The notes beneath the pieces are model-generated. The model made no database searches, was not told the DNA's origin, and worked only from the letters and a program-made list of their open reading frames with translations. Positions 13,119 to 45,725 of a stretch of DNA of 64,000 nt are shown one piece after another (within the stretch, counting starts at the first letter, position 1; every line of letters begins with the position of its first letter). Source of the DNA: an uncultured Christensenellaceae bacterium (GTDB lineage Bacteria > Bacillota > Clostridia > Christensenellales > UBA3700); contig CALWKW010000002.1 in NCBI GenBank assembly GCA_944381365.1, positions 385,952-449,951 on the forward strand. The letters run 5' to 3'. Made by a program: the position numbers and the translations under genes.

Positions 13119-13119
13119 A

Positions 13120-25038: not shown

Positions 25039-25581
25039 TTATTCTACTTGAAATATTTTTGTAATAGATTGACCCGCAATCATTCTGTTGCAAATACAAT
25101 TTGTGCACTTTCTGAATCTGTCAAAAATCTTTTGTTTTTCGCATTCGTTTGAATATACTTTCCAATAACCGCACAATTCTGTGCGTGCGGTAGGTTTTTC
25201 GATAAAGCCTCTTACATCTTCTAAAGGATAACCTAGAAATACTCCTATTTCGTGAGGAAAATCCTCCTCTTGCAACCTTTTTCTCATAAGCTCAACGGCT
25301 TGAGTCAAAGTTTTGTAATTGTATCCTTTTTCTTTAAGAAAATGGCGATTGAGCTCATCAAAAAGAATTTTTTCTAGACAGCTGCGATTATAAACATATA
25401 CGAGCAATCGACCTTTTGCCGCTCTCATAAATTTATATTCAAAGCCTTTTGCTCTGAACTTGCCTAAAAAATGGATGAATGTATCTTTCTCATCTTCTTT
25501 TATCGTATATAAACTAGCCGGCTTTAACTTTGCAAATGTTATACCGCAATGTTTGCCTAAATTATATTCTGCTTGACTCAT
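25039..25581 (-). CDS. DUF3793 family protein
   Basis: I place the start at MSQAEY (ATG at 25581, AAAGGAG RBS). The blocks FPHEIGVFLGYPLEDVRGFI and CGYWKVY resemble DUF3793, a frequent flavodoxin neighbour. Confidence 0.55.
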   Translation of the reverse strand: MSQAEYNLGKHCGITFAKLKPASLYTIKEDEKDTFIHFLGKFRAKGFEYKFMRAAKGRLLVYVYNRSCLEKILFDELNRHFLKEKGYNYKTLTQAVELMRKRLQEEDFPHEIGVFLGYPLEDVRGFIEKPTARTELCGYWKVYSNECEKQKIFDRFRKCTNCICNRMIAGQSITKIFQVE

Positions 25582-25594
25582 ATTTTCTCCTTTA

Positions 25595-25610
25595 GTTCGC
25601 ATATGCGAAC
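25595..25610. promoter_or_regulatory. GTTCG-class operator-like perfect palindrome (proximal)
   Basis: GTTCGCATATGCGAAC, between the -10 box and the RBS of the DUF3793-flavodoxin operon. Confidence 0.6.
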
Positions 25611-25664: not shown

Positions 25665-25680
25665 GTTCGCATATGCGAAC
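25665..25680. promoter_or_regulatory. GTTCG-class operator-like perfect palindrome (distal)
   Basis: Identical 16-mer GTTCGCATATGCGAAC, centred exactly 70 bp from the proximal copy and upstream of the -35 box. Confidence 0.6.
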
Positions 25681-25904: not shown

Positions 25905-26519
25905 TTATGCTTTATAAATTACGCCTTCAGCCAAACACCATACTTTCTTTGCTGTATGTAACTGAATATCTTCAAAGCCTGCTTTGAGCAAAAACTCTTT
26001 TAACTCTTCAGGAGTATAGATATTCATACCTTCGCAGCGTTTTGTCCAGAATTGTGCTTTTTGAGGATTTGTCATCTCTAATGCAAGAATAATCCTTCCT
26101 TTATCCTTTAATACCCTTGCGATTTCCTTAAGTCCTTCTACGGGGTCAGGCCAAAAATATATTGACTCAAATGAAATAACTTTATCGTACGAATTATCCT
26201 CAAATGGAAGATTCATAACATCTCCGCACACTATGTTTGTGCGTGATTTGAACTTTTGCGTATTTTGTATGCTGCTCTCGACGCTTGTGGCTGAATAATC
26301 TACGCCGTCTACCTCAATTGACGGATATTTCTTGAGAAGTATTATAATATTTCCGCCGCCGCCACATCCTACATCCAAAACCTTTTCTTCATTGTCAAAA
26401 GGCACCAAATCAAATGCCCAATTGCATAAAGGAGCATGTCCTTTGTTCATAGCATTTAATACCATTTTGCCAAACTTACCTTGGGGCTTTTTACAATTAC
26501 TTAAAAATTTTCTAAGCAT
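25905..26519 (-). CDS. class I SAM-dependent methyltransferase
   Basis: VLDVGCGGGGN SAM-binding motif I and a later DKVISFESIYF block. RBS GGAGAG. Begins 15 nt after the NEAT gene. Confidence 0.8.
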   Translation of the reverse strand: MLRKFLSNCKKPQGKFGKMVLNAMNKGHAPLCNWAFDLVPFDNEEKVLDVGCGGGGNIIILLKKYPSIEVDGVDYSATSVESSIQNTQKFKSRTNIVCGDVMNLPFEDNSYDKVISFESIYFWPDPVEGLKEIARVLKDKGRIILALEMTNPQKAQFWTKRCEGMNIYTPEELKEFLLKAGFEDIQLHTAKKVWCLAEGVIYKA

Positions 26520-26534
26520 AACTCTCTCCTTTTA

Positions 26535-27842
26535 TTACGAATTTGCGTTGTCTTGCAAGACTTTTTTCTTATGTTTTTTGACTATAAGCACGATGCTTGT
26601 TGTAAGGGCTGCTATTAAAACAAGACTTCCTAAGATAATCAAAGCATATCCCCACATAGGCATTACAAAGTCTACTCCCGGTATACATACAATAAATGTA
26701 CCCGTCTTGTCAGTATTGATTTTTACATAACTTCCTCCATTCTCACTTGAAATCTTTATAAGTGAACCATTCTCTGCCATATAGTAAACAACTATATCGT
26801 TTCTGTCGTAAGTAGATTTTGCTTTTATGTATAGTACATATTCTCCTAAAGGCGTGGCTTTGCTTCCGTCTGTATTTATAAGACTTGTTTGAAATACTTC
26901 AAAGTTTGTTGCAATAGTTTTCATTTGTTCTGCCACGGTATTGTAAATTGTACTTTCTTCTGTAAGCCTGCTTGCTTGAATAGATACACCTTTGTCCAAA
27001 ACTCCATCAGGATCCTCAAACTTTGCAAGAGTACCTCCTTCGGCAAGAGATAATATTTTTATAATTTTTTCGGTAAAAGTATTATTTCCCAGCAAGGATT
27101 TATATTGTGAACTTTCTGCACGATAAACGACATTATATTCGCCTATCTCATCAAGTGCAAACTGATTATTTGTTACACTCACTTCTATTTTTTTGTCACC
27201 GCTTAAATAATATACTAATATCCTGACTTTGCAATTTTCTTCTCCGAGCGTTGCTTTTGCCTCGGGAATAGTAAATACCGAACCTTGTACCGTTTCGTAT
27301 TCATTGCCTGATGTAGTAGAAATTACAGGAACAAACTCTGCCGGACGATCAGTAGTAGCATCTTCGATATCTCCAATTCTGGTTGCGTTGGCAAGATTAA
27401 GCCGGATAGTGAAATAAAAAGTTTCGTCTCTAGGCGCTACAAATACCGAAAACGGCAACTCTTTTGATAAATTCTCTTTTGATAATGTAAATCGATAAGT
27501 CTTTTTGTTTGCGTCACTATATGTAATGCTGTAACCGACTTGTTTACCATCTTCAAGATTAAGCGAAAGATTTTGCATAGATGAAGAAAGCTGTGTAATG
27601 GACGCGTAATAATTGTTGCCTATTTTTTCGACTATGGCATTGTTATCAAAATATTTTGCAATCATATTTGCGCCAATGCCCGATTGTCCGCCGATAGAAT
27701 AAGACACATTATATTCGCCGTCCATTGAGAATATATCGCTTTGCGCATAAACAACTTGTTGTCCTGCCGACAATGCAATAGTACAAGGTATAAATAGCAT
27801 AAGCACGATGATAAATATTGAACTTATTTGCTTAACTTTCAT
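26535..27842 (-). CDS. NEAT-domain surface protein with Ig-like middle domain and C-terminal TM anchor
   Basis: Signal peptide. NEAT-like block DGEYNVSYSIGG...ANMIAKYFDNNAIVEKIGNNYYASITQ...KKTYRFTLSKENLSKELPFSVFV...TFYFTIRLN. C-terminal hydrophobic helix plus KKHKKK tail. No LPXTG. Confidence 0.6.
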   Translation of the reverse strand: MKVKQISSIFIIVLMLFIPCTIALSAGQQVVYAQSDIFSMDGEYNVSYSIGGQSGIGANMIAKYFDNNAIVEKIGNNYYASITQLSSSMQNLSLNLEDGKQVGYSITYSDANKKTYRFTLSKENLSKELPFSVFVAPRDETFYFTIRLNLANATRIGDIEDATTDRPAEFVPVISTTSGNEYETVQGSVFTIPEAKATLGEENCKVRILVYYLSGDKKIEVSVTNNQFALDEIGEYNVVYRAESSQYKSLLGNNTFTEKIIKILSLAEGGTLAKFEDPDGVLDKGVSIQASRLTEESTIYNTVAEQMKTIATNFEVFQTSLINTDGSKATPLGEYVLYIKAKSTYDRNDIVVYYMAENGSLIKISSENGGSYVKINTDKTGTFIVCIPGVDFVMPMWGYALIILGSLVLIAALTTSIVLIVKKHKKKVLQDNANS

Positions 27843-30800
27843 AAAGACATCTCCTTATCTTTGAATACAGCATAAAGAATAATTCTATTGCCCGAACTAA
27901 TATATTCGATGAGAATAGGGTCTTTTTCTAGATCAAACTGCTTATATTCACCATCAACATATACTGCCCAATATGCAAACTCTTTAGCGAGATTTGTGCA
28001 AGTTACGGAATTAAGTTGATCGAGCTTGCTATCTGAAACACTTTCGGCTATCGTACTATCTTCTAAAATATTACGCGAACCGCTTACGATATTCGTAAAT
28101 TCTAGACTATTACCATTTTCATCAACTGCTTGATAGCTTATATTCATTACTTTTTTAACGACTACCCACAAAGTAAATGTTTCTTTCACATTAAAGCTAA
28201 AATCAAAACCTTTATCTGTAGTATAACTATATACGGCGTTTGATCCGTATCCCTCACTAAAAACAGGTTTGTCTGCACGCCAACCTACCTGTTGGTACCC
28301 GTTAGGGAAAGAGTAGAATTGTCTGAAATCAAAAATATTGACTGTGTAATTTGAATATCCGCCATTGTTGGGTCTATAATATGTTACCTCTCCCATATAT
28401 TCTGTATCTTTGCCATCCATATCATAATAAGCCTTTATTGTTATACCTTTATCCCATAAAGCATATATCATAGGCTTAAGCGTACCCAATTCGACTCCCA
28501 ATTTACCCACTGAACTTCCTGCTTTGAATAAATATCCACTCATTTGAGGTGTCGAGCTCCATCCGTATAATCTATCCTTTGTGGACTCAAAATGGAGCGA
28601 AGATAATGACATGTTATTATTTGCCATACTAACGGTAATCGTATAGTAGTAATAGTTTTGATCTTCTGTAATAGTCGCACCATTCAAACGATCTATATTG
28701 AATGGATGTTCCTTGTCCGTAACATAAGTAACTTGTATATCACATTTATCATCATATACGATAAATTTGCGACATAGTGAAGCTGTAACGAATGTATCTG
28801 AATCAGAAGGATCATAATTAGAGAATACAGGGTCACCATATTCGTTGGTATGGAATGCAAAAACAAGTTCTACCATATACTCTCCCTCTTGCAAAAATGT
28901 GAGTACCGTACCAAAATCTGTGCTTTGGTTTGTATATAAATCTCTTGATGCATAACTATAGTTGTCACCCGAACGCATATAGACATAATATGTGCCACGA
29001 GATAGAGAGGTATTACCACTAAAGATTTTGGGTCTTTCCATCTTGATCTCTTGCCCCGTAAACAATGCCGAACCATCGTCTATAAACTTATACTCTGCCA
29101 CACTTTTTGCATCGATCATAAAATTATACATTGCACTACAAGAAGCGTGGTCGCCATAATTATTGTAATAATGCAAAGTAATTACAGCATAAGGTTGATT
29201 TTCTATCAATTCCCATATCTGCCCGATATCATTTATTGTTTGAGTATTATCACGCAGATATATTGTAGCATAAGAAAAAGCTAACTGCGATAAATATGAT
29301 TGTTCGGATTCGGTAATGTACATATCATAATATTGTGGAAGATTGGCAATATCTGTTTGGTTTTGCAATACATAAGTATCTATATGTTTATAGTTAATAG
29401 TGTCACGAACCCCATCGGTATAAGTAAAGTCGCTAGACTGTAGCCTACCCCCGCTTGCATCGGTGATATAATAATTCCCCACATTGTTTCCTCGATATTC
29501 AAGAATAATCGTTTGCCACTCTCCGAATCGGTTGGCAAGACGCATAGAAATCCTCATTCGCTCTGAGCTCAAAGTAAAAATATTGTTTCCCTCTCCATAT
29601 GAGCCTGCAAACTGACTATATTCACGCTGATACATTCCATTCCAATACTTCCATACTGCAACATACAGATAATTTGTTCGGTATTCATCGCTTCCGTCTT
29701 CATATTTAATTAAAGAATATGTAGTATATTCTCTTCCTAGCCACTTATACCTTATCTCAGGTACCTGGACATATGACCCTAAAAGAAAGCGTTCGTCCGT
29801 AATCCATACATCTTCATTTTCATCGTATCTCCATTTACTATCCTGAATTTCATAGGTAGGATCCTCTTGAGGCAAAAGCGTAACTATACAACTACGTTTT
29901 GTGTTTTCATAGTTTGCTGTGTATGAAATAGCAACTCCCTCATCAAATTTGAAATTGCGTGATAAATTTATAGGAGAAGAAAAATCTATATTGCCGTTTT
30001 TATCCAATAGGTATGCTTGCCATTCTAGATTTGACAGCGATATTGTCGGATAAACTTTTTCTTGATATAGCTCAACCAAATCAACATCTGTATTAGGAGC
30101 TATAGTTTTACCTATATCGACAGGCATTCTGTCTGCGTTTGTAGCCGCCATATTTATTAACGAAAGGTAGGACACTGCGCTTGAATATAGTTCGCCTTGA
30201 GTCTTGCAGTCATATCCATAAGCCTCATATACTATATCGAAATAAGACAGTTTTCCACGCATATCGGCTACATTTTTTTCTGCAGTCTGTGCGGATGGAG
30301 TAATAGTCATTTTGCTATCGTAATTGACTAAACCCGTCTTTCCTCCGTCGAGAGATGAATAGAACATATTTACCATTCTCACTGCATACTCATAATTTTG
30401 CAAAGTACTATATATAGTATTATCATTGGCAAAATCCACATCTGCATAACCTGAATAAAAAGGTACATTATCTGAATATGTATATGAATCGCCTTTTAGA
30501 GGAGTATAATCCCAATCTGTAATACGAACCATACTATTGTATCCTATACAAAGTCTACGATAGCCAAAAGGCATATTAAACATTTGCTCCATAGCACCAG
30601 TACTGCCACCATACAAAATTATATCCTTTTTTAATTCATTGCCTAAGTCAAAAGTATAATAATACTTTCCGCTATCGGCATGAAACTCATATGTGAGAGT
30701 TCCGTAAGCACCTGCATCCAAAAGTCCGGGAATGTATACATTTGAAGAATTAAGTTCTTCTTGACTTACGGTATTGCTTGAATTAATCAAAAAATATGCA

Positions 30801-31864
30801 AAATCTCGAGCATAACCAGTGCTTCGATCAAAATAATCGTCGCCTTCTAAGTTCATAAGATCAGAATTATATGCTGTAAGCTGTTTGATAAGCTTATAAT
30901 GTCCGTTCTCTGCTACGATATACGAATATACCGGATGAAAAAAATCTAATATTGCCGCACCTTTATCTAACTCTGTGTAGTGAGTAGGGACAAGATATAT
31001 ACCGTCTTCCAACACTCCATCTATATTGACAAAGGACTGAGAAAAACCGAACAAACAAGTGATATCCACTTTTACTGCATATGATACAGAACAATTATCA
31101 CGATTTTCGCCCGATTCAAGTTTTGATACCCAATTGTAATACTCTACATAAAGAGTGATTGGTTGAGAAATATCCAAATCAGAAATATCATAATATAGAG
31201 TCTGTAATGTACTTGTTCTGTCAAATACGCTAAGTTCTTCTGAGATTCTGCCCGTGCCTCCGTCTGTAAGCGTATATGCTTGCTTAGACATATTTCCGTC
31301 GTTGCCAAAAATAGGTCCACGCTCGTGTGCGTCATACTGAATACGCAACCAAGTACCTAAATCATTTTTTTCTATATATGTTTCGGATGCAATTATGTCC
31401 TCGCTAAAATCACGCCAACCATACTTGTCGGCAAGGATTCCTTTAGCAATACTTTCTTCGTCAATACGAGCCTCAAATTCGATATCGTATTTACCATTGT
31501 TGACTATTGCTTCTTTTTCCCATTTTGCATGCAACATTACATCGCACATTTTCCAATATAAATCTCCATCCGAAACATCACAAGGATCTGTAAAGGCAGA
31601 ATCAAAAAACCAACCGGCAAAGACATATCCCACTCTTTCGGGTATGGGAAGAGTAGGCATATCGTTGGCAGAATAATAGATGTCCGAAATAGGCTCTTCT
31701 AAATTGCCTGCATAGAATGAAATCTTATACTGCTTATCACCATAAGCGTCTTTGATGGCATCCTGAGGTGTATTTATTCCATTCTGCACAGTACAACCTG
31801 CAATGCTTAATGCCATAATCATTAAAAATATCAACAATATAATGCCTTTTATTTTGTTTTTCAA
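27839..31864 (-). CDS. giant (1341-aa) lipoprotein, mostly unassignable; Listeria-Bacteroides-type repeat at both ends
   Basis: TTG start with GGGAGG RBS. Lipobox SIAGC. GYVFAGWFFD near the N-terminus, and GYQQVGWRAD / FAYWAVYVDG near the C-terminus. ATGA overlap with the NEAT gene. Confidence 0.6.
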   Translation of the reverse strand: MKNKIKGIILLIFLMIMALSIAGCTVQNGINTPQDAIKDAYGDKQYKISFYAGNLEEPISDIYYSANDMPTLPIPERVGYVFAGWFFDSAFTDPCDVSDGDLYWKMCDVMLHAKWEKEAIVNNGKYDIEFEARIDEESIAKGILADKYGWRDFSEDIIASETYIEKNDLGTWLRIQYDAHERGPIFGNDGNMSKQAYTLTDGGTGRISEELSVFDRTSTLQTLYYDISDLDISQPITLYVEYYNWVSKLESGENRDNCSVSYAVKVDITCLFGFSQSFVNIDGVLEDGIYLVPTHYTELDKGAAILDFFHPVYSYIVAENGHYKLIKQLTAYNSDLMNLEGDDYFDRSTGYARDFAYFLINSSNTVSQEELNSSNVYIPGLLDAGAYGTLTYEFHADSGKYYYTFDLGNELKKDIILYGGSTGAMEQMFNMPFGYRRLCIGYNSMVRITDWDYTPLKGDSYTYSDNVPFYSGYADVDFANDNTIYSTLQNYEYAVRMVNMFYSSLDGGKTGLVNYDSKMTITPSAQTAEKNVADMRGKLSYFDIVYEAYGYDCKTQGELYSSAVSYLSLINMAATNADRMPVDIGKTIAPNTDVDLVELYQEKVYPTISLSNLEWQAYLLDKNGNIDFSSPINLSRNFKFDEGVAISYTANYENTKRSCIVTLLPQEDPTYEIQDSKWRYDENEDVWITDERFLLGSYVQVPEIRYKWLGREYTTYSLIKYEDGSDEYRTNYLYVAVWKYWNGMYQREYSQFAGSYGEGNNIFTLSSERMRISMRLANRFGEWQTIILEYRGNNVGNYYITDASGGRLQSSDFTYTDGVRDTINYKHIDTYVLQNQTDIANLPQYYDMYITESEQSYLSQLAFSYATIYLRDNTQTINDIGQIWELIENQPYAVITLHYYNNYGDHASCSAMYNFMIDAKSVAEYKFIDDGSALFTGQEIKMERPKIFSGNTSLSRGTYYVYMRSGDNYSYASRDLYTNQSTDFGTVLTFLQEGEYMVELVFAFHTNEYGDPVFSNYDPSDSDTFVTASLCRKFIVYDDKCDIQVTYVTDKEHPFNIDRLNGATITEDQNYYYYTITVSMANNNMSLSSLHFESTKDRLYGWSSTPQMSGYLFKAGSSVGKLGVELGTLKPMIYALWDKGITIKAYYDMDGKDTEYMGEVTYYRPNNGGYSNYTVNIFDFRQFYSFPNGYQQVGWRADKPVFSEGYGSNAVYSYTTDKGFDFSFNVKETFTLWVVVKKVMNISYQAVDENGNSLEFTNIVSGSRNILEDSTIAESVSDSKLDQLNSVTCTNLAKEFAYWAVYVDGEYKQFDLEKDPILIEYISSGNRIILYAVFKDKEMSL

Positions 31865-31910
31865 ATTCTATGCCTCCCTTGTATGTATGCACAAACAATG
31901 CATAATTGCA

Positions 31911-31926
31911 GCCCGTATATACGGGC
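31911..31926 (-). other. intercistronic perfect palindrome / stem-loop
   Basis: GCCCGTATATACGGGC lies in the 83-nt gap between the two giant lipoprotein genes. No T-run follows. Confidence 0.4.
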
Positions 31927-31947
31927 CACAATTATACTTTCTAGTTA

Positions 31948-34900
31948 TTATACTTTGCTTAGTCGAATTTTACCCATGCCTTCTTCTGTATATCCTTGAT
32001 ACCAACCATCTTCAAATACTGATTGATTTGCAGATATAAACTCAGCTAAAGTTTTGCCAGAAAATTCTCCCATATAGTCTGAGTACTGAATATATATATC
32101 TGTACCGCAATCTGTAAATGCATTTTGGTGTATTTTGGATACTGAATTAAAAATAATTGTAGTACTATATGATGTCTTATCATTGATATAGTAGAACGAA
32201 CCTTCCATCACTTCATAATTAATTATATTCTTGCTATCCGTTATATCTCCAAGACTTATCATTACAATATCTTTGTTGGCATTGACAGCTCCTGCACTTG
32301 CAACAAATTTTACATTCCAAGTAGTTACACCGTCTTCTGAAGTTGTTTTACCTGCATACTGATACAATCCGTATCCGCCGTATACGGGTGAGAAACCATC
32401 TATGCCGACAATATCCTGACGAATAAAGAAGTCGCCAACTTTTAAGTCTGATTTTGTCAACATATTTCTATCTTCTTCACCCTTTGCAGGAATAAATTCT
32501 TTTAGCGTTTCTGTCTTAAAAGCGTATGCTCCCACTTCTTTTAGATTTGCAAGAGGCAAAGCAATTTCAGTCAAAGAAGTACCCTCAAAAGCACTTGCGC
32601 CAACAACTTCCAATCCACCTGTTGCAATTTTTGCACCAACAAGACCTTCACACATATAAAAAGCCTTTTCGCCAATAACTTTTACTGAAGAAGGAATGCT
32701 TACATATCCTATATTAATACAATTGGGATTCTTTGTTGCATCGAAAGCTCCGTCTGCAATCTCGGTTACCTTAAGCTTTGCACCATTAATAGTTACTTCA
32801 TTAGGAATACCTACGATATAAAGTCCATTGCTAGTCTTATATCCGTTGTTTGCAAAACCTGTAATCTTTGCAGTACCATCACCATTGTCTTCTGCTATAT
32901 AACCTCCGTCGATCACATAATCACTCACAATGGTCAAATATACATTTGTAGTAAGGTTTTTATCAAAATCATATTCAGCTCCAAACGAAGTTACGCTAGA
33001 AATTTTAAGAACTTTGTCTGTCGAATATGCCTTGTATAGTGATGTGCTATTTGCTGTATCAATAGCTTTCAAAAGTTCATCTAATGTTAGTTTATCATTT
33101 TTGTTCTTTTCAATCTTTGCTGAATAACTCTCGCCTGTAAACTCATTTTTGAGTACAACTTGTACTTGTGGAGTATCTGTTTTTCCAATATAAACAACAA
33201 CATCTTTATATGATGTAGATGTATAGGGTTCATATTGAGATTCTATCATACTGCCATTACCTGTAGGGTCACCCATAAAAGCAAACCCTGCACAATCGCC
33301 TACAAGAGCTTCTCCGTTGAATACTAGATTGATAAGGTCATCTATTTTATTGTATACAGCATATCCGCCAATAGCGATATTACCTCGAGGAGAAGATGCA
33401 AACTGTTCATCCCATAGGAAATTATTACAACCAGAATATGTACTGCTATTATAAGTATAAGCTGCATAATCATTTGCGTTTGCATTATAACCTATATAAT
33501 TGAATGACTCAGGCAAAACAATATAGTTATATGAACGATTCATATAAGTACCTACTTGGATACCTTCTACTCCTTCAGGAACTATAAGAGTACCGCCCTC
33601 TTTACTGTAATCGGCTATAAGAAGAAGTTTACCCTCATGTCCTTGTGCATTGTCTATTTTATATACATAATTTCCATCTCTATAAAACTCGCCAATTTCC
33701 GCAGTTGATTTTGTAGCTTCAAAAATAAAGTTTGCAGGAATCATTGAGAGATTTTTTACACTTGAAGGAACTTTTATATCAAAAGAATAAGGTTCTCCCA
33801 AATTCACTTTTCCTGCAAGACTATTCCAACTTGCATTGCAATTTGCCCAAAAACTTCCTATAATTACTTCTACGCCTTGAGGAATTTCAACAGTTTGTAG
33901 TTTGTTGAGGTTGTTGAAACAATTTATAATCACCTTTAGTGTAGAAGGAAGTGATATTTCTTTTATTGTACAAGCAGTAGACGCATTGATATTTTGTATA
34001 ATAGATATTCCTTCGCCTATTATAAGTTTTTCTATAACAGAACCACTTAATAGGGTACCATTAAGATTTACCTCTTCTACCTTATAGGTTTCTGCAATAC
34101 CATCTTTGTCCATATCAAAAGTAAGCTCTCCGGGAATAGAGATTACGGGTACCGTGTTTGCCTTAGCGTCTGTTTGTGTATCATCATAAATATATTTATC
34201 ATTTTGATACATTGTCAACCTTAAGTTGCCTGTAGCTTCGTTGACTTGATATGCTAAAAATGGAGATCTCCAAGTTACGGTGATGTTGGTATTTTGAGTG
34301 ATAGGCTGAGAAAAATCAAACTCCTTATTATCTTCTCCCCAATATGCTATATCATATTTGGACATATAATTCTTTCTGATTTCTGTCGCCTCAATGCCAC
34401 CTTCAGATGCAGGATTGGTAAATACCGTTCCGGGGGTTACTGTTGTGGTAAATACATCTTCGTATCCATTGTTAAAAGTAATGCGTGCTACTGAACGAGC
34501 ATAAAGCGTAGTAACAATAGATTTGCCGTCCCATTTAGTACTTTCAGTGAAATTAGCGTTAGTGTACCATCCGCTGAACTCCAAGCCTTCGCCCGGATCA
34601 TATGTACCGTTTACTACATCTATTAGATTTTGCGTACCCAAATTTTCGCCGTTGATCACTACTCCTACCTCAATAGGCACAAATTTTGCATATACGCTTA
34701 TACTTTGCTTTATATCCTTATTTGCAAAAGCATCCCCTGTCAAGTCTTGCTTATAATACCAGTTGCTGAAATTATAATACAATTTATCGGGGTTTTTAGG
34801 CATCTCCACTTTTCCGTCCACAACTTCTGCTTCGTGGAAAGATGCCCATTCGCCCTTGTCGTTCTGCACCATAAAGGTGACTTTGGGATTGTCTTTATCA

Positions 34901-34989
34901 CTGTTGCAAGCAGAAAATATAGAAATCCCCGCAAAAATTACTACGACAAGTGCAAGCACGATGAGCAATTTCTTTTTTGCTATTATCAT
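31948..34989 (-). CDS. 1013-aa lipoprotein with Listeria-Bacteroides repeats and BspA-type leucine-rich repeats
   Basis: Lipobox FSAC. Repeats YYNFSNWYYKQD and LEFSGWYTNANF. LRR_5-like segments such as IPSSVKVIGEKAFYMCEGL...VVGASAFEGTSLTEIALP...EVGAYAFK. Confidence 0.65.
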   Translation of the reverse strand: MIIAKKKLLIVLALVVVIFAGISIFSACNSDKDNPKVTFMVQNDKGEWASFHEAEVVDGKVEMPKNPDKLYYNFSNWYYKQDLTGDAFANKDIKQSISVYAKFVPIEVGVVINGENLGTQNLIDVVNGTYDPGEGLEFSGWYTNANFTESTKWDGKSIVTTLYARSVARITFNNGYEDVFTTTVTPGTVFTNPASEGGIEATEIRKNYMSKYDIAYWGEDNKEFDFSQPITQNTNITVTWRSPFLAYQVNEATGNLRLTMYQNDKYIYDDTQTDAKANTVPVISIPGELTFDMDKDGIAETYKVEEVNLNGTLLSGSVIEKLIIGEGISIIQNINASTACTIKEISLPSTLKVIINCFNNLNKLQTVEIPQGVEVIIGSFWANCNASWNSLAGKVNLGEPYSFDIKVPSSVKNLSMIPANFIFEATKSTAEIGEFYRDGNYVYKIDNAQGHEGKLLLIADYSKEGGTLIVPEGVEGIQVGTYMNRSYNYIVLPESFNYIGYNANANDYAAYTYNSSTYSGCNNFLWDEQFASSPRGNIAIGGYAVYNKIDDLINLVFNGEALVGDCAGFAFMGDPTGNGSMIESQYEPYTSTSYKDVVVYIGKTDTPQVQVVLKNEFTGESYSAKIEKNKNDKLTLDELLKAIDTANSTSLYKAYSTDKVLKISSVTSFGAEYDFDKNLTTNVYLTIVSDYVIDGGYIAEDNGDGTAKITGFANNGYKTSNGLYIVGIPNEVTINGAKLKVTEIADGAFDATKNPNCINIGYVSIPSSVKVIGEKAFYMCEGLVGAKIATGGLEVVGASAFEGTSLTEIALPLANLKEVGAYAFKTETLKEFIPAKGEEDRNMLTKSDLKVGDFFIRQDIVGIDGFSPVYGGYGLYQYAGKTTSEDGVTTWNVKFVASAGAVNANKDIVMISLGDITDSKNIINYEVMEGSFYYINDKTSYSTTIIFNSVSKIHQNAFTDCGTDIYIQYSDYMGEFSGKTLAEFISANQSVFEDGWYQGYTEEGMGKIRLSKV

Positions 34990-35060
34990 ATTTTTACTCC
35001 TTTATAATTATTTATTTGAATTCTTCCCCTCAATTAGGAAAGTTTATTCCGAATTTAGTA

Positions 35061-37571
35061 TTAGATATCATATCTCGAAAGAATTTGCGATGGCGTCTTA
35101 AATAGCACAAACAAATATGGTATTAGAGATATAATCATCATTATAATCGCACTTATCGCAAACAATGCAAATGCAAGTCCGATAAATGCACCAAATGCTA
35201 TATTTCCCATAAAGTATCTTATACTCATAACAATAGCAACAATGATAAATGTTATAAGATATCCTATTAGGTTATTGATGCATGCATTTATTGTTTCTTT
35301 GAATAAAAGATTGCTTTTATTCACACCTATAGCACGATAAATACCATACTCTTTGCTATTTTTTATACTTCCTGACTTTTCTATGAAGAAATAAATCAGA
35401 TACATCAATACTGCAGCAACTAAAAATATCATTAGATTACTTAGCGACTGTTTTAGCGTATTGGCTTGTTCTTCTTCATATAATGCACTGAGATTGACTG
35501 CTACCACACCTCTTTCTGCAAGCCTTTGATTTAAGTTTGCAAGTTGTTCTCCTCCCGATGTATTTATCTCAAAATAGTATCCTGAGTCACTTCCCAACGC
35601 ATCAAGATTGGGACGGATATATACAAAAATATCATTGAGAGTATTCTGCGTAACATATATGCGTATATCCGTTGTCATTGCGGACCTTGTGAGTTGCATT
35701 TGTCGAACATACATAGGATAGCTATCTGTCAATGAGATAAGCTGTGGAGAATTGAGAAGTATTTTATTTGCTGATTCTATGAGATAATCCGCCTGCGAAG
35801 TATCTTCAATCATCCTATACACCGCGTTTCTATTGATCTCTACGACCACTTCATCGTTATTGAGATCAAGCGTGTTGCCGTCATACAAACATATTTCTGC
35901 CGAAAAACCATTTATGGTAGATTTTGTCTCTCTATCTATATAACTATCTTTGAAAAACAGATTGGTTCGATCGGTAAAATATATGTCGCCATATACTCCT
36001 AGAAAATTAATATAATCCTCTCTATTCATATAGATAAAAGGCTCGTCGCCATACGCAATACCGCTTATGCTATACTTTTTTTCAAAAAGCATAAGCAATA
36101 TAGAACTGTCATTTTGCAATTCAGCTATACGCAGTTGACTTTTGAGTGTTTGCGCTAGGTTGCGACTGATAAGAACTTCTCCTCTCTTTGGCATATCTCC
36201 ATACTGCAAACCCACGCTTTTAGCCGTTGAATCGCTTGGCAAGGATCTAGGCTCGTATTTTACCTTAATTCCCGACAACGACTGAATGTTGTTGTACGAA
36301 AATAATCCCTCGATATAATCTAATGCAAAGAAATCTATGTCATTATACAAAGGTACTGATTGTCTGTTCAATCTGCTTACCTCTGCATATGAATTCATAT
36401 CTACATACACGCTCGCATTGCCCAATGGTTTTTTCTCATCTGTCAAATTGATTGCTTCAAAGGCAAAGAATGAAAAAAAACACATTATTACTGCCATTGC
36501 AACAATAAATATCTGCTTAAATATATTTGCAGTAGAATATAGTTTTTCTTCTCCATTCAGACGAAACTGCCTTAATATATTTTTGAATCTAAATAGCCTG
36601 CCATTATGCTTTGTTTGGCTTTTTTCAAACATTACCATATTGGCTTTACAAGAATTTACACTATCTTCATTCCTACCATTAAAAACCAAACGCTTTTCGC
36701 TTGTATCATCAAGAATAGTTACATTTTTCCCTGCACGAATATAAAGTTCGTCGTTTTTATTGATAATTTGTATTTTATCTTTTTTCTCAATAGTCGAACC
36801 AAATACTTCGATATTCAACCCCTCTGCTTTATATTCACGAGCATCTTTTTCGTCTACAAATATATCGTTTGTCTGCGTTTCATAGTTTGCAACCTCTTCA
36901 AGATAGGCGTCTTCCACTAGTTGGCCGTCTACTATTTTGATAAAACTATCTGCATATTCCTTTATTAGCATTATTTCATGCGTAACAAGAACCACAAGCC
37001 TTGTCTTGGATATTTCCTTTAATATATTCATAACCTTGATTGTATTTTGAGCATCAAGATTACCAGTAGGTTCGTCCGCAAGTATAATGTCCGCTCCTTT
37101 TATAAGAGCTCTTGCTATGGCTACACGCTGTTTTTGCCCGCCTGACAATGCGTCACCTTGCTTGTTTTTATATCGCTCCATATCCACTATTTTCAAGACT
37201 TCGTCACTGCGTCTTTTTATTTCCGCTTCGTCCTTAAATCCTGCAATATACATTGCATTGTGCATTATTTCGGATATGGTATATCCACCTTCTAGATAGT
37301 AGTTTTGAAAAATAAAACCTATTTTTTCATTGCGAATTTTATCTACCTTTCGCCCTACACATTCGCCGTCGATATATATCTTGCCACTATCCTGCTTTTC
37401 AAGCCCACCGATAATGTTCAAAAGCGTGGTTTTACCACTACCGGATTTTCCAAAAATCGCAACAAGACCTTTTTCAGGTAATTCAAAAGATACTCCTTTC
37501 AACACCTGATTACGATTGAGGGAGCGGGGATTAAATACTTTGCTTATATTTTCAACCTTTATTTTTGCCAT
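35061..37571 (-). CDS. fused MacB-type ABC protein (N-terminal ATPase + FtsX-like permease), 836 aa
   Basis: GKSGSGKTT, LSGGQKQR and ILADEPTGNLD. One TM, then a large extracytoplasmic domain, then three C-terminal TM helices. Confidence 0.8.
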   Translation of the reverse strand: MAKIKVENISKVFNPRSLNRNQVLKGVSFELPEKGLVAIFGKSGSGKTTLLNIIGGLEKQDSGKIYIDGECVGRKVDKIRNEKIGFIFQNYYLEGGYTISEIMHNAMYIAGFKDEAEIKRRSDEVLKIVDMERYKNKQGDALSGGQKQRVAIARALIKGADIILADEPTGNLDAQNTIKVMNILKEISKTRLVVLVTHEIMLIKEYADSFIKIVDGQLVEDAYLEEVANYETQTNDIFVDEKDAREYKAEGLNIEVFGSTIEKKDKIQIINKNDELYIRAGKNVTILDDTSEKRLVFNGRNEDSVNSCKANMVMFEKSQTKHNGRLFRFKNILRQFRLNGEEKLYSTANIFKQIFIVAMAVIMCFFSFFAFEAINLTDEKKPLGNASVYVDMNSYAEVSRLNRQSVPLYNDIDFFALDYIEGLFSYNNIQSLSGIKVKYEPRSLPSDSTAKSVGLQYGDMPKRGEVLISRNLAQTLKSQLRIAELQNDSSILLMLFEKKYSISGIAYGDEPFIYMNREDYINFLGVYGDIYFTDRTNLFFKDSYIDRETKSTINGFSAEICLYDGNTLDLNNDEVVVEINRNAVYRMIEDTSQADYLIESANKILLNSPQLISLTDSYPMYVRQMQLTRSAMTTDIRIYVTQNTLNDIFVYIRPNLDALGSDSGYYFEINTSGGEQLANLNQRLAERGVVAVNLSALYEEEQANTLKQSLSNLMIFLVAAVLMYLIYFFIEKSGSIKNSKEYGIYRAIGVNKSNLLFKETINACINNLIGYLITFIIVAIVMSIRYFMGNIAFGAFIGLAFALFAISAIIMMIISLIPYLFVLFKTPSQILSRYDI

Positions 37572-37572
37572 A

Positions 37573-39642
37573 TTACTTAGATCCCCTTCTTAAACTCTTG
37601 CGAATAGATTGACTATTGATGCTTTTATTGAATCCGTATGCTACAAACTCTACAATCAACAACATCATTATTTCAATAAATATATAGTTGCCTATTGAAA
37701 TTAGCATAAAATTGCTTCCCGGCAAAATCGCCATAATGAGGCTTACAATAGGCAAAAGTATTAGAGTAGGCAAGAAAATAAACAACATTTGCATATAAAG
37801 ACTGTTGGCACTTATTTTTCGCGATATGCCAAGCGTTCGATATACAGAAAAATCAGCTTGATAAATCTTTACGCTTCGCATAAAAATAACGCTTATCAAC
37901 ATTGCAAATATAAGCCCCACTGCAATTAGTGCTAAATACCACAATATGTTGATTGTGAATACATCCATCACATCTTGTACATATACAGTTGTAGTCGATA
38001 GCATACCTATATACCCTTCAGGTAGTAATGCTATTGCAGCTTTTGCCTCATCGTTATTTTTATAAAACAGCACGCTTTGCACCGCATTATCATCGCTCAA
38101 AAACATTGCTTCATAATCCCCTCGATTCATCTGAACAATAAGTCCGGATACTTCGTTATTCTTTTCGTCTGAGCGAATAACTATATATGATTTATCTGTT
38201 TTTGCATCAAATACTACAGTCTTGCCATCAGCTGAATAAAAATTTGAGTTTACTAAATTTACTTGTCCCTCAAGCAAATTTTCATTTACTTCGAAACTAT
38301 AGACTCTCGTCTTATCCGTCCCGAAAGTCATCATCGAATACAAAGCTTGGATTTTTTCTCCGTATTCGTTCAAATCATCATAACTTAAATATAGATATAC
38401 TCCATCTACATTCAAACTGCTCTCTATGGATATTTCATACAATCCTATACCCGCATTCAAAAAAGCTTCTTTAATGGTATCAGCATCACCCTTTTGCGAA
38501 TTAGGTACAACAAGTACAGCTTTTCCCGCTTCGATATTATGCTCATAAGGAGAATAAAGACACACAATTTCGTGTTCTCGCAACATACCGCCTAATTTAG
38601 GAATACTTACGCTAAACTGTGAAAGTTCTCTGTCCAAAAAGAAAAATCCGGCTTTTGTCTTGCCCGCAACCTCGTCAAGTTGCTTTTGCGTTATTTTGTT
38701 TTGCTGATTAGAGATTATGACCTTACCGGTTATCCCTGTGTGATCCAATGTTGTCGTTGTTGGCTTAATAAGTCCCTGTCCGAATATTGCCACAACGAAA
38801 AACATAGTAATTGCACATACAAACAACGCAAATGACATCATTAAAGTGAACTTCGGACGACTCTTATAATTGAGCGCTCCTATGTGGAAAGTGTTTTTTA
38901 GGTTAAGCCATTTGCTTACTTTGCGGTCTTCTTTTTTTTCTTCTGTTTCCTCTCTTTCTTTTGGCTTCGTTATCAATTTATCTTCACTGATTTTTCCGTC
39001 AAATACACGAATTCTCCTCGTCGCATACTCTTTGAAAAATTCAGGGTTGTGCGTTACTACAATTACCAATTTGTCTTTCGACAACTCTTTGAGTAACGAC
39101 GCTACCTCTTTGCTCGCTTTTACATCCAAGTTACCCGTAGGCTCATCTGCAAGTATAACAGGACTATCCTTTGCCAAAGCTCTTGCAATTACCGTCCTCT
39201 GCTTTTCTCCGCCGGACAACTTGCTTCCTCTTTGATTTATCTGCTTGCCAAGTCCTACCCTCTCTATGAGCTCTTTTGCTCGTCTTCTTCTCTCTTTTTT
39301 ATCCTCTATTCTCAACAATGCCAGCTCTACATTTTCCAGCACCGTAAGATTTTCTATTATATTAAAGTCTTGAAATATCGTGGCAATATTGTTTTCTCTG
39401 TACCTTTCCCAATCGCTTTCGGAATAGTGCGAAGTTTCTTCTCCGTTAAAATACAACTCTCCTTCTTCGTATGTATCGTTGGCGCCTATGACATTCAAAA
39501 GCGTACTCTTTCCCGAACCGCTCTCTCCCTCGATTGTTACAAACTCGTTGTAATCCAACTCGAGATTAATACCTCTGATTCCTATGGTAAATATTCCGTT
39601 GCTGTCATAAATCTTTCCGATATTCTTTAGCTTTAATAACAT
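37573..39642 (-). CDS. fused MacB-type ABC protein (N-terminal ATPase + FtsX-like permease), 689 aa
   Basis: GESGSGKST, LSGGEKQR and ILADEPTGNLD. Topology is 1 + 3 TM with a ~300-aa external loop. A 1-nt gap separates it from the next gene. Confidence 0.8.
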   Translation of the reverse strand: MLLKLKNIGKIYDSNGIFTIGIRGINLELDYNEFVTIEGESGSGKSTLLNVIGANDTYEEGELYFNGEETSHYSESDWERYRENNIATIFQDFNIIENLTVLENVELALLRIEDKKERRRRAKELIERVGLGKQINQRGSKLSGGEKQRTVIARALAKDSPVILADEPTGNLDVKASKEVASLLKELSKDKLVIVVTHNPEFFKEYATRRIRVFDGKISEDKLITKPKEREETEEKKEDRKVSKWLNLKNTFHIGALNYKSRPKFTLMMSFALFVCAITMFFVVAIFGQGLIKPTTTTLDHTGITGKVIISNQQNKITQKQLDEVAGKTKAGFFFLDRELSQFSVSIPKLGGMLREHEIVCLYSPYEHNIEAGKAVLVVPNSQKGDADTIKEAFLNAGIGLYEISIESSLNVDGVYLYLSYDDLNEYGEKIQALYSMMTFGTDKTRVYSFEVNENLLEGQVNLVNSNFYSADGKTVVFDAKTDKSYIVIRSDEKNNEVSGLIVQMNRGDYEAMFLSDDNAVQSVLFYKNNDEAKAAIALLPEGYIGMLSTTTVYVQDVMDVFTINILWYLALIAVGLIFAMLISVIFMRSVKIYQADFSVYRTLGISRKISANSLYMQMLFIFLPTLILLPIVSLIMAILPGSNFMLISIGNYIFIEIMMLLIVEFVAYGFNKSINSQSIRKSLRRGSK

Positions 39643-39656
39643 TTGCTCTCCATATA

Positions 39657-39672
39657 GTTCGCATTGACGAAC
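39657..39672. promoter_or_regulatory. GTTCG-class operator-like site in the ABC operon leader
   Basis: GTTCGcattgaCGAAC, immediately upstream of the GGAGAG RBS of the first ABC gene. Confidence 0.5.
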
Positions 39673-39785: not shown

Positions 39786-39801
39786 GTTAGCCAAGGCTAA
39801 C
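39786..39801. promoter_or_regulatory. GTTAG-class operator-like perfect palindrome
   Basis: GTTAGCCAAGGCTAAC. On the minus strand it is directly preceded by TGcTATAAA (extended -10-like box). Confidence 0.55.
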
Positions 39802-39842: not shown

Positions 39843-39872
39843 ATTATAAAAGCACGCAAATCTTAATGTCAA
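39843..39872 (-). promoter_or_regulatory. consensus-like promoter of uncertain function
   Basis: TTGACA, 18 nt, TATAAT on the minus strand. However, the terminator hairpin starts within about 10 nt of the predicted start site, so the role is ambiguous. Confidence 0.3.
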
Positions 39873-39886
39873 TTTGTAGCCTTGGC

Positions 39887-40258
39887 TTACAACTGATTTT
39901 TTTCGACAGATTTTAAGCTGATGATAAGTTTTGCGTTTTCACTCATTGAACAATAAGCATTTGAAGCTTCTCTATACGATATTTTACTGTTTATACCGCA
40001 AGTATTTTCTAGTACCTCTTGCAAAAACCTGATACCATTTCTTACTTCCTCAAGTTTTTCTTTTCCCTTTTCTGTCAAAAACCATTTCCCTTCTTTTGTC
40101 GTGTCGATAAGCTTGTTTGCCCTCAACTTTTCCATTGCCCTATATGAGCTTACTCTGGATACTCCCAACTTTGTCGCTATACTTGCCATATTGAAGTTTT
40201 CGTTTTGCTTACAAAGGCTGTCGATACAATCGAGATACTTATATTGTGATGCCGTCAT
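39887..40258 (-). CDS. DtxR-family-like regulator lacking the canonical metal ligands (paralogue 1)
   Basis: 123 aa. wHTH block IATKLGVSRVSSYRAMEKLRANKLI plus a helical dimerisation region. The positions equivalent to the DtxR ligand residues read ASQYKYLDC and NAYCSMSE. Confidence 0.55.
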   Translation of the reverse strand: MTASQYKYLDCIDSLCKQNENFNMASIATKLGVSRVSSYRAMEKLRANKLIDTTKEGKWFLTEKGKEKLEEVRNGIRFLQEVLENTCGINSKISYREASNAYCSMSENAKLIISLKSVEKNQL

Positions 40259-40264
40259 ATTAAT

Positions 40265-40280
40265 GTTCGTATTAGCGAAC
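40265..40280. promoter_or_regulatory. GTTCG-class operator-like site between SD and start codon of paralogue 1
   Basis: GTTCGtattagCGAAC. Confidence 0.5.
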
Positions 40281-40340: not shown

Positions 40341-40356
40341 GTTCGCAAAAGCGAAC
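40341..40356. promoter_or_regulatory. GTTCG-class operator-like site upstream of paralogue 1
   Basis: GTTCGcaaaagCGAAC, which is palindromic over GTTCGC/GCGAAC. Confidence 0.5.
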
Positions 40357-40415: not shown

Positions 40416-40787
40416 TCAGTCTTTGTTTTTTACATAATTCTTGATTATTTCAAAGACATCTTTAGATATTACATGCTCTATACGACAAGCATTCTCCTCT
40501 GCGGATTTTTTCTCTGCCCCAAGACTTACAAGCAAGCTTGTGATAACCTCGTGTCTTTCGTATATTTCAACTGCTCTTTGATACCCTTCTTTGGTAAAAT
40601 TAATCTCACCGCTCTCGTGAGATATAGTAATATATCCTTTTTTTTGCAAAAGATTAACGCCTCTCGATACGCTAGATTTTGCATAATCCATAGACTCTAC
40701 AATATCTACTGACCTTACCGAAGGCTTTTGATTTTTCAACAAATATATTGTCTCAAGATACATTTCTTCTGATTCTTTTGTTCTCAT
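40416..40787 (-). CDS. DtxR/IdeR-family metal-dependent repressor (short form, paralogue 2)
   Basis: SEEMYLETIYLL (compare DtxR TEMYLRTIYEL), ERHEVITSLL, and NACRIEHVIS with the C-x-x-E-H arrangement of the DtxR primary metal site. Confidence 0.8.
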   Translation of the reverse strand: MRTKESEEMYLETIYLLKNQKPSVRSVDIVESMDYAKSSVSRGVNLLQKKGYITISHESGEINFTKEGYQRAVEIYERHEVITSLLVSLGAEKKSAEENACRIEHVISKDVFEIIKNYVKNKD

Positions 40788-44636: not shown

Positions 44637-44693
44637 TCTTTTTACCTCCTTGATTTTATTATACAAAGAGATATTCAAAAACAAAAATTTTAA

Positions 44694-45709: not shown

Positions 45710-45725
45710 GTTAGAGAAAGCTAAC
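45710..45725. promoter_or_regulatory. GTTAG-class operator-like site at the AraC/ABC operon start site
   Basis: AAAGTTAGagaaagCTAACTTT (8 + 8 nt symmetric). It begins 8 nt downstream of the -10 box. Confidence 0.55.

Follow-up and report, generated by a model that had tools for sequence, protein, structure and literature searches.

A conserved five-gene cassette with a NEAT-domain protein, two giant lipoproteins and paired ABC proteins in uncultured gut Clostridia: a candidate iron-repressed system for heme capture

Heme capture by NEAT-domain proteins has been worked out almost wholly in aerobic or facultative pathogens with sortase-anchored relays. Here we analyse a differently built NEAT locus at positions 25905-39672 of a 64,000-nucleotide (nt) stretch of DNA (contig CALWKW010000002.1, positions 385,952 to 449,951 of the forward strand, assembly GCA_944381365.1) from an uncultured Christensenellaceae bacterium; the whole stretch is referred to below as the window. 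Among the closest described systems is the Cht locus of Clostridium perfringens, which is iron-regulated and encodes ChtD and ChtE, both of them NEAT proteins, together with two half-transporters of the transmembrane domain-nucleotide-binding domain (TMD-NBD) type (PMC5026354). Shp and Shr are held by C-terminal hydrophobic tails, and Shp uses non-tyrosine (methionine) ligands (PMC5026354). The isd locus of Staphylococcus lugdunensis encodes LhaSTA, a heme importer of the energy-coupling factor (ECF) type (PMC7299338). In Streptococcus pyogenes and Streptococcus agalactiae the BspA-type leucine-rich repeat (LRR) adhesin HupY/LrrG, which is under MtsR, binds heme and aids iron acquisition (PMC6593403).

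A first-pass annotation had read the locus as an operon of six genes that couples two MacB-type ATP-binding cassette (ABC) proteins to two giant lipoproteins, a NEAT protein and a methyltransferase. Comparison with related loci reduces this set to five genes, which are kept in the same order throughout a group of uncultured Clostridia and appear to be under the control of DtxR-type regulators.

The five-gene cassette and its control

The six open reading frames (ORFs) are co-oriented, and their coordinates and spacing match the first-pass annotation exactly.

37573-39642, minus strand: ABC1, 689 amino acids (aa)
35061-37571, minus strand: ABC2, 836 aa
31948-34989, minus strand: LP1013, lipoprotein
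31900-31937, minus strand: GC-rich hairpin of 17 bp between LP1013 and LP1341
27839-31864, minus strand: LP1341, lipoprotein, TTG start
26535-27842, minus strand: NEAT protein, 435 aa
25905-26519, minus strand: methyltransferase, 204 aa

From ABC1 down to the methyltransferase the genes are separated by gaps of 1, 71, 83 and 15 nt, and the LP1341 and NEAT genes overlap by 4 nt. The 1-nt gap and the 4-nt overlap suggest translational coupling.

For comparison we used about 20 related loci from metagenome-assembled genomes of gut Clostridia, with labels in the range L005-L031. On GTDB contigs representing one genome per species, the NEAT protein occurs in 19 loci, all of them from uncultured Clostridia (labels Christensenellaceae, Catabacter, Stercoripulliclostridium, Neoclostridium and similar); its homologues form more than 1,300 clusters at 90% identity, all unnamed and metagenome-derived. 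The order ABC1-ABC2-LP1013-LP1341-NEAT is identical in L005, L006, L009, L011, L012, L015, L016, L018, L021, L022 and L024-L031. It is kept wherever the flanking DNA suffices, including loci reached through homologues of LP1341 and ABC2, and persists down to 26% identity in LP1341 and about 45% in the NEAT protein; the sole exception is L023. The conserved core thus comprises these five genes, and we have very little doubt that the cassette is a real functional module. Within it the lipoproteins diverge much faster than their partners (27-31% identity in L012, L015 and L016, versus 47-58% for ABC2 and the NEAT protein), which fits exposed surface proteins.

The methyltransferase, counted as the sixth member in the first-pass annotation, drops out. 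Its assignment to the class I S-adenosylmethionine-dependent methyltransferases holds, being supported by both Pfam and NCBIfam domains, but in species other than that of the window it was found behind the NEAT gene in L021 alone. In the other loci the position 3′ of NEAT is taken by a DtxR-family gene or, in L005, by an AraC gene. The methyltransferase is therefore an accessory gene or a passenger, and is ruled out as a core member on conservation. Its 90%-identity cluster has 51 members, several of them on dozens of contigs, while clusters of the cassette proteins have 8-16 members each; the size of the cluster is consistent with a widely shared, housekeeping-type gene that merely abuts the cassette.

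The hairpin between LP1013 and LP1341 is kept in position, though not in sequence, in 12 of 13 lineages (L005-L026 range). The folding energy of this intergenic region is -24 to about -40 kcal/mol, and in some lineages a T-run follows. The hairpin may act as a leaky terminator or as an mRNA stabiliser, setting the ratio of the two operon halves. Co-transcription of all six genes is a prediction.

The leader of the cassette and the regulatory genes near it contain the following elements.

39843-39872, minus strand: cassette promoter of the sigma-70 type, TTGACA-18-TATAAT, 12/12
39876-39889: degenerate class A site just upstream of the cassette promoter
39786-39801: class A operator GTTAGCCAAGGCTAAC (GTTAG-N6-CTAAC), at about +35 to +50 from the predicted transcription start
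39657-39672: class B operator GTTCGCATTGACGAAC (GTTCG-N6-CGAAC), with its end about 5 nt ahead of the ribosome-binding site of ABC1
39887-40258, minus strand: HTH2, a DtxR/MntR-like winged-helix protein of 123 aa, with class B operators at 40265-40280 and 40341-40356 in front
40416-40787, minus strand: DtxR/IdeR-like repressor of 123 aa (Pfam Fe_dep_repress 42.0 bits and Fe_dep_repr_C 51.7 bits; cut-offs 26 and 27)
25039-25602 and 24601-25020, minus strand: DUF3793 protein and flavodoxin, with class B operators at 25595-25610 and 25665-25680

Both leader operators proposed earlier, at 39786 and 39657, were confirmed. The half-sites of the two classes, GTTAG and GTTCG, are one base apart. Class B is present in five perfect copies in the window, a number reached in 0 of 100 shuffles; the copies precede HTH2 (two), the cassette (one) and the DUF3793-flavodoxin pair (two). 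Class A precedes three units, namely the cassette, an operon of an AraC regulator with type-I ABC proteins (45710) and the operon at 13986. With at most one mismatch allowed, class A and/or class B sites are found in the ABC1 leaders of 8 of 9 lineages, the background density being 0.045 (class A) and 0.125 (class B) per kb. Class A is seen in the leaders of L025, L026 and L027, and class B in those of L027-L031. Homologues of HTH2 lie directly upstream of ABC1 in L024 and L028-L031. Lineages with this arrangement carry class B alone, L025 and L026 class A alone, and the window and L027 both. At gathering thresholds Rfam returned one tRNA only in the whole window, and no riboswitch in the leader of about 190 nt.

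The solved structures that best match the DtxR/IdeR-like repressor are IdeR and DtxR (1e-10); the SH3-like C-terminal domain is missing. In the alignment to IdeR the metal-site stretches of the protein read EMYLETIY and NACRIEHV, and the equivalents of Met10, Cys102, Glu105 and His106 are kept. The first two set a primary site of the Fe type apart from one of the Mn type. A DtxR-family gene stands right after NEAT in L006, L008, L010-L012, L014, L015, L024, L026 and L028-L031. HTH2, by reading of its sequence, appears to lack the canonical metal-site residues and has several cysteines. We presume that the repressor acts on class A sites and HTH2 on class B sites. Class A sites precede the HTH2 gene in L009 and L023, an order that suggests a regulatory cascade. 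On the L023 contig (3171-9828) the order is two class A sites, HTH2, an ORF of 143 aa and a type-I ABC pair, then a NEAT gene that seems frameshifted; giant lipoproteins are missing from this contig.

Flavodoxin is a classic iron-sparing stand-in for ferredoxin, and the DUF3793 protein could be an iron-sparing or heme-processing partner; a literature search on DUF3793 returned nothing relevant. The DtxR gene after NEAT in most lineages and the link to flavodoxin support induction by iron starvation. Control of the cassette by DtxR-type regulators is well supported, and its repression by metal (iron) is likely. The operators in 8 of 9 lineages, the adjacent repressor of presumed Fe type and the co-regulation of flavodoxin thus make an iron-repressed surface system, as proposed in the first-pass annotation, the best reading of the locus.

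The surface proteins, the ABC pair and the linked operons

The NEAT protein carries a signal peptide at its N terminus, a NEAT domain at about residues 41-150, immunoglobulin (Ig)-like domains and a C-terminal transmembrane (TM) helix with a basic tail. Pfam NEAT (PF05031) matched residues 41-148 with 39.4 bits (gathering threshold 32.8), and most homologues also carry PF05031. A direct sequence search of the PDB gave no significant match for the NEAT protein. Its AlphaFold2 model (predicted local distance difference test, pLDDT, 82.9) was matched by Foldseek to IsdX1 (template-modelling score 0.76; root-mean-square deviation 2.6 Å) and IsdX2-N5 (0.77), then to Hbp2-N2, IsdA, IsdC and Shp. The modelled domain shows the eight strands of an Ig-like sandwich plus a lip helix and can be superimposed on NEAT domains of solved structure; the top neighbours are all heme-binding NEATs. 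The Pfam score, the Foldseek matches and the hydropathy profile thus bear out the early call of a NEAT domain with a C-terminal TM anchor.

At the lip helix, where IsdX1 reads SRMNRY, the family has (N/Q)M(I/L)xKY, with Met60 invariant and Tyr64 nearly invariant. The profile alignment of the NEAT protein to IsdX1 ends before strand β8, which reads ETFYFTIRL (consensus ETFxFTITL over 71 homologues). In this strand Glu140 is conserved, Phe142 nearly invariant and Phe144 invariant, and the only tyrosine falls at the variable position. Just before the TM helix, residues 386-395 form a (nearly) invariant C-I-P-G-V-x-F-x-M-P, which is not a known sorting signal. No LPXTG-like motif was found in LP1013, LP1341 or the NEAT protein, and the ORFs scanned in the window and the loci contain no sortase domain, as had been stated for this operon. 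LP1013, LP1341 and a 172-aa NEAT-like protein described below have the lipoboxes FSAC, IAGC and FAAC, and the lipobox cysteine is conserved in all 18 orthologues checked. Judged by these features, the surface proteins are anchored by lipid or by a TM helix.

As the first-pass annotation had it, LP1013 combines N-terminal Flg_new (Listeria-Bacteroides) repeats with BspA-type LRRs. Pfam and NCBIfam place the latter in two LRR_5 blocks, the second at about residues 315-500. The match of its LRR region to the HupY model is weak (25 bits; cut-off 1250). In LP1341 the same databases recognise a single N-terminal Flg_new repeat and no other domain. A direct sequence search of the PDB with LP1341 matched the InlB B-repeat only, and a 75-sequence profile found nothing there beyond a Flg_new-type match. 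The AlphaFold2 model of residues 118-1317, made from the 75-sequence alignment, has a mean pLDDT of 89.8 and is all beta. Foldseek matched it only to tandem Ig-like arrays (template-modelling score <=0.25), among them contactin, the S-layer proteins Sap and EA1 of Bacillus anthracis, α2-macroglobulin, titin and cadherins. LP1341 is thus modelled with high confidence as a long stalk or scaffold of Ig-like β-sandwiches with no enzyme fold. A glycosidase, peptidase or other enzyme is ruled out by the Foldseek result, which contains generic Ig, cadherin, S-layer and α2-macroglobulin arrays only. The more than 1000 aa of LP1341 left unassigned in the first pass are indeed silent at the level of sequence profiles, but the model gives an ordinary stalk or adhesin type and not a new fold. 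Of the two ordinary explanations entertained then for the giant proteins, adhesin and glycosidase, the first fits LP1341 and the second does not, and its linkage to the cassette is conserved: full-length homologues all have 1,232-1,370 aa, and every one looked up sits in the cassette. Judging from these homologues, the LP1341 family is restricted to this cassette.

Both ABC1 and ABC2 contain ABC_tran (Pfam, NCBIfam), with Walker A, Q-loop, signature, Walker B and H-loop complete. Among solved structures their ATPase domains are nearest to MacB and LolD (1e-38 for LolD), and the top NCBIfam matches include LolD, FtsE, MacB and DevA. Hydropathy places TM helices at about residues 269, 570, 622 and 646 of ABC1 and at about 353, 712, 764 and 799 of ABC2, leaving ectodomains of about 280 and 340 aa, respectively, between TM1 and TM2. 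This layout (N-terminal ATPase, TM1, ectodomain, TM2-4) is the MacB-type topology with four TM helices.

The two membrane domains differ in how far they can be connected to FtsX. Pfam FtsX (PF02687) matched ABC2 over the full profile length but below threshold (15.4 bits, E 0.019; cut-off 25.5), and a direct scan gave no match in ABC1. The best PDB match of an ABC2 orthologue profile was MacB TM2-4, at the homologous position, with E 0.14. Residues 700-836 of ABC2 (TM2-4) have hundreds of matches among fused proteins about 800-1000 aa in length, E reaching down to about 1e-13, and the full-length relatives scanned contain ABC_tran and Pfam FtsX at 43-54 bits. Since these relatives have a genuine FtsX domain, ABC2 can be assigned through intermediate homologues as a very divergent fused ABC-FtsX (type VII) protein. 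ABC1, whose membrane domain is extremely divergent, shares only the topology and a motif in a cytoplasmic loop, YR(T/A)(L/I)G(I/V)S(R/K)K. Of the two tandem ATPase-FtsX fusions annotated initially, one is therefore confirmed through intermediates, while the other fits by topology and one loop motif only. The ectodomains show no detectable sequence similarity to LolC, LolE or MacB. In an exhaustive search of 1.84 billion representatives, the ABC2 ectodomain aligned at full length with only about 10 of the clusters built at 50% identity. No MacA/HlyD-like membrane-fusion adaptor was found among the cassette genes or their neighbours in the window and the related loci. ABC1 and ABC2 are probably the two halves of a heterodimeric type VII (MacB/FtsX-like) complex.

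Two further operons with class A operators are linked to the cassette.

13986-14001: class A operator heading the linked operon 6836-13966 (minus strand)
13619-13966, minus strand: YgbA_NO protein
13120-13638, minus strand: NEAT-like lipoprotein of 172 aa
11394-13118 and 9712-11397, minus strand: type-I ABC half-transporters
8924-9712, minus strand: Trep_Strep S-component (34.2 bits, cut-off 28.7)
8248-8922, minus strand: EcfT (CbiQ, 59 bits)
6836-8311, minus strand: EcfAA′, a fused protein with two ABC_tran domains
45710-45725: perfect class A operator of the AraC operon
44694-45683, minus strand: AraC regulator
42849-44684 and 41129-42856, minus strand: type-I ABC half-transporters

The NEAT-like domain of the 172-aa lipoprotein is 28% identical to the cassette NEAT over the whole domain (E 4e-9) and shares its lip and β8 features. 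In L030 and L031 the module 6836-13966 has its counterpart directly upstream of HTH2 and the cassette, with the small NEAT gene missing in L030; L024, L028 and L029 end further upstream, so that only the ECF end of the module is visible. The AraC gene and its type-I ABC pair lie directly downstream of the NEAT gene in L005. Since the linked operons adjoin the cassette in other genomes, the cassette belongs to a larger, probably iron-controlled supercluster. The earlier statement that there is no importer is accordingly right within 25905-39672, while the co-regulated operon 6836-13966 has both a type-I ABC pair and an ECF module. Neither a type II ABC importer with a substrate-binding protein nor an IsdG-family heme oxygenase was found among the ORFs scanned. 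A cobalamin or corrinoid system, raised by the CbiQ label and a weak CpaM match, is unlikely: the CbiQ family is that of EcfT in general, a B12 riboswitch is missing, and regulation follows the DtxR type. The arrangement of the AraC trio recalls YbtA/YbtPQ or ChtC2/C3.

Other neighbours were noted as well. A gene for a WYL-domain protein follows the cassette, downstream of the DtxR gene, in L024 and L028-L031. Further 3′, in L024, L028 and L029, lie genes for an S24 peptidase repressor and a small sigma factor, and beyond them those of mobile elements (MobL with a type IV secretion system coupling protein in L028; giant MutS_I/helicase proteins in L024 and L029), from which it appears that the cassette borders an integrative element. 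At 55560-61268 on the minus strand the window encodes a 1902-aa protein with DUF4011, AAA_11/AAA_12 superfamily-1 helicase and MTES_1575 nuclease domains, which looks defence- or repair-like and is unrelated to the cassette.

Proposed working and rival explanations

We propose that this five-gene module, found in uncultured gut Clostridia resembling Christensenellales, is turned on by iron scarcity and serves as the surface capture stage of heme acquisition, a reading on which we are evenly divided. When iron is present, the DtxR/IdeR-like repressor (on class A) and HTH2 (on class B) would block the long operon leader. Iron starvation would lead to the synthesis of two lipid-anchored giant proteins, providing LRR binding surfaces and an Ig-like stalk of about 1,300 aa, and of the TM-anchored protein with its tyrosine-less NEAT domain. 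At or beyond the cell wall these would bind a host or dietary hemoprotein or free heme. The ligand would then pass to the paralogous NEAT-like lipoprotein and on to the co-regulated ECF transporter and/or the type-I ABC pairs. The ABC1/ABC2 complex would itself import nothing. Its ATP hydrolysis would drive work on extracytoplasmic partners, either conformational work or ligand release on the lipoprotein-NEAT assembly, or else extraction and positioning of the giant lipoproteins. By analogy with described NEAT systems the ligand may be heme or a related porphyrin, with the balance of probability at its midpoint.

Several observations weigh against this proposal. The canonical YXXXY heme ligands are missing from the NEAT protein, β8 is without a conserved tyrosine or methionine across the 71 homologues, and the SXXXXY lip motif begins with N or Q instead of S. 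In the loci scanned, the surroundings of the cassette showed no gene for a heme oxygenase, a ChuW-type enzyme or any other heme-degrading protein. The metal is in question too: for the repressor the top-scoring NCBIfam models are those of MntR, regulators of the DtxR family that are this small often respond to Mn, and a gene for the Mn exporter MntP lies near the cassette in L026. Of the giant proteins, LP1341 has a generic fold of Ig-like arrays as in adhesins and S-layer proteins, and the LP1013 orthologue of L005 (4049-5872, 608 aa) is without the C-terminal LRR block, which is thus dispensable or swapped in some lineages. As to the motors, the membrane domain of ABC1 has no statistically significant similarity to FtsX, and we know of no type VII ABC transporter in nutrient uptake.

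With YXXXY absent and the lip serine replaced, heme ligation cannot be predicted from sequence. Clostridial NEAT domains, however, have been described by Honsa et al. (2014) as lacking YXXXY and having two conserved phenylalanines instead (PMC4143258), and Choo et al. showed that ChtD and ChtE of C. perfringens, which are without these tyrosines, bind heme (PMC5026354). Because these two proteins do so, heme binding by the cassette NEAT is plausible.

The function of the ABC pair, like the ligand and the metal, is among the weak points of the proposal. Strict co-occurrence and cassette-specific ectodomains lead us to suggest, tentatively and somewhat short of an even balance, that its action is on extracytoplasmic partners and not the pumping of a small solute. 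That, in these presumably single-membrane bacteria, an ATP-driven type VII complex does mechanical work on a lipid-anchored assembly of the LRR lipoprotein, the Ig-stalk lipoprotein and the tyrosine-less NEAT protein, so as to strip heme from hemoproteins of host or diet or to free it for the NEAT-like lipoprotein and the ECF importer, as a Gram-positive counterpart of TonB-energised receptors, seems doubtful. About equally doubtful is the best surviving rival, a Lol-like machine in which the ABC-FtsX pair extracts, positions or releases the giant lipoproteins, and maybe the NEAT protein, for biogenesis and not for capture; its product would be an iron-starvation surface layer, an adhesin or a shed hemophore-like complex. 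Two unlike FtsX-type subunits recall LolC/LolE, LolD is among the best solved matches of the ATPases (1e-38), and the pair always comes with two lipoproteins, no more and no fewer, whose lipoboxes are conserved. The resemblance of LP1341 to Ig arrays of S-layer proteins and adhesins, and the fast divergence of the lipoproteins relative to the ABC and NEAT proteins (27-31% versus 47-58% in L012, L015 and L016), also suit such a machine. Yet a single membrane is presumed in these bacteria, a LolA/LolB-like carrier is not encoded nearby, and the 280-340-aa ectodomains are cassette-specific, with no detectable sequence similarity to LolC/LolE. Biogenesis would also leave unexplained why a NEAT protein is coupled to the unit and why the cassette is linked to the NEAT-like lipoprotein and ECF operon.

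The module might alternatively serve another ligand, such as a different tetrapyrrole, a metallophore, ferritin- or transferrin-like proteins or a host or dietary glycoprotein, with Mn possibly the metal; we consider this rather unlikely. It would account for the absent YXXXY ligands, for the lack of a nearby heme-degrading enzyme in the loci scanned, and for the MntR models and the MntP gene of L026. It would also sit well with the Trep_Strep S-components, to which, by the Pfam description, no substrate is assigned. The repressor nonetheless keeps the Met10 and Cys102 equivalents, no riboswitch is present in the window, and the closest structural neighbours of the NEAT model are all heme-binding NEATs; tyrosine-less clostridial NEATs, moreover, do bind heme (PMC5026354).

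An efflux or detoxification pump for heme or porphyrin on the lines of HrtAB or MacAB, guarding the cell during heme import, with the surface proteins as extracellular sinks or shields, is improbable. In its favour, HrtAB is a MacB-type heme exporter, MacAB exports protoporphyrin, the nearest solved ATPase is that of MacB, and a NEAT fold is present. Regulation, however, resembles repression of the starvation type through DtxR-family operators, not heme induction, and neither an HssRS- nor an HrtR-like regulator lies next to the cassette. Compared with that of HrtB the ectodomains are several times larger, and a pair of co-evolving lipoproteins, each longer than 1,000 aa, is not something that a pump would be expected to require. 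Finally, the view that a pair of ABC exporters, two adhesins and a NEAT protein are merely adjacent, to which the hairpin that could split the unit into two transcripts and the passenger status of the methyltransferase lend a little colour, is effectively refuted by an order identical across lineages of 26-50% identity, start and stop codons that overlap or abut, and cassette-specific families.

Should the heme-capture proposal prove right, it would extend heme and iron piracy to commensal Clostridia, which are abundant, and to colonic heme from the diet or shed by the host; the cassette hints that an entire clade of gut commensals, uncultured and strictly anaerobic, has a differently built, iron-controlled NEAT system. 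It would assign a role to fused ABC-FtsX proteins whose ectodomains are giant, a family unnamed in the source databases, and provide a test case for mechanotransmission ABC transporters in nutrient acquisition. The control region would represent a two-operator, two-regulator DtxR-family iron circuit with half-sites differing by one base. Were the TonB-like variant true, a mechanotransmission ABC transporter would for the first time have a part in nutrient uptake. A ligand other than heme would make the tyrosine-less NEAT pair a pointer to a new class of NEAT ligand.

Comparison with known systems

Searches of the literature for this gene set (NEAT in Christensenellaceae; NEAT with FtsX and lipoprotein; Listeria-Bacteroides repeat with heme) and for Trep_Strep with ECF and ABC returned nothing relevant. 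In the source databases the five cassette proteins, the methyltransferase, HTH2 and the 172-aa NEAT-like lipoprotein, eight in all, are without a name.

Like the cassette as proposed here, Cht is an iron-regulated operon of a Clostridium-class anaerobe with tyrosine-less NEATs and TMD-NBD pairs (chtC2/chtC3; compare 41129-44684 and 9712-13118). Cht, however, has a sortase, an LPQTG signal, the substrate-binding-protein importer ChtABC1 and Fur boxes, whereas the locus described here has lipobox or TM anchors, DtxR-family operators and a likely ECF-type importer, and its cassette adds two ABC-FtsX proteins and two giant lipoproteins. Clostridial Group NEATs, in which YXXXY is replaced by two phenylalanines, share this pattern with the cassette NEAT, and the likeness is drawn by this pattern; their conserved methionine in the β7-β8 loop is missing from it (PMC4143258).

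The Isd systems of Staphylococcus and Bacillus and Shr-Shp-HtsABC of Streptococcus pyogenes are iron-repressed surface relays built on the NEAT fold, and they resemble our locus in having two NEAT-type proteins at different envelope depths, in the manner of donor and acceptor. No sortase, LPXTG/NPQTN signal, IsdE/HtsA-type binding protein or IsdG/I oxygenase was seen in the cassette, and its NEAT is without the canonical tyrosine ligand; those systems, in turn, have neither type VII ABC proteins nor lipoproteins longer than 1,000 aa. LhaSTA, an iron-regulated ECF transporter (S, T and A components) encoded with NEAT proteins, is a precedent for the ECF module at 6836-9712, although the S-component here is of the Trep_Strep family, EcfAA′ is fused, and a type-I ABC pair and YgbA_NO are added.

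ABC1 and ABC2 share with MacB the N-terminal ATPase fused to a domain of four TM helices and the ectodomain between TM1 and TM2. With MacB, LolCDE and FtsEX, ABC2 shares FtsX-type TM2-4 through intermediates, and the two unlike subunits are as in LolC/LolE. Co-encoded extracytoplasmic partners are known from FtsEX-PcsB/EnvC. Unlike these type VII systems and HrtAB, the cassette has no MacA-like adaptor, LolA/LolB, hydrolase partner or heme-sensing regulator; what is encoded with its ABC pair is the two giant lipoproteins and the NEAT protein.

HupY/LrrG is the precedent for an LRR module in heme capture, under MtsR, a metalloregulator of the DtxR family; LP1013 differs in being a lipoprotein with Flg_new repeats. 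IlsA and Shr combine NEAT and LRR modules in one protein, while the cassette has them on separate polypeptides anchored by lipid or a TM helix, as the first-pass annotation had supposed. All parts of the system are thus of known kinds, and its logic, iron-repressed and NEAT-based, is that of Isd and Cht. What is new is the lipid and TM anchoring, the giant LRR and Ig lipoproteins, the putative type VII ABC heterodimer, and the coupling to an ECF transporter with two DtxR-like regulators.

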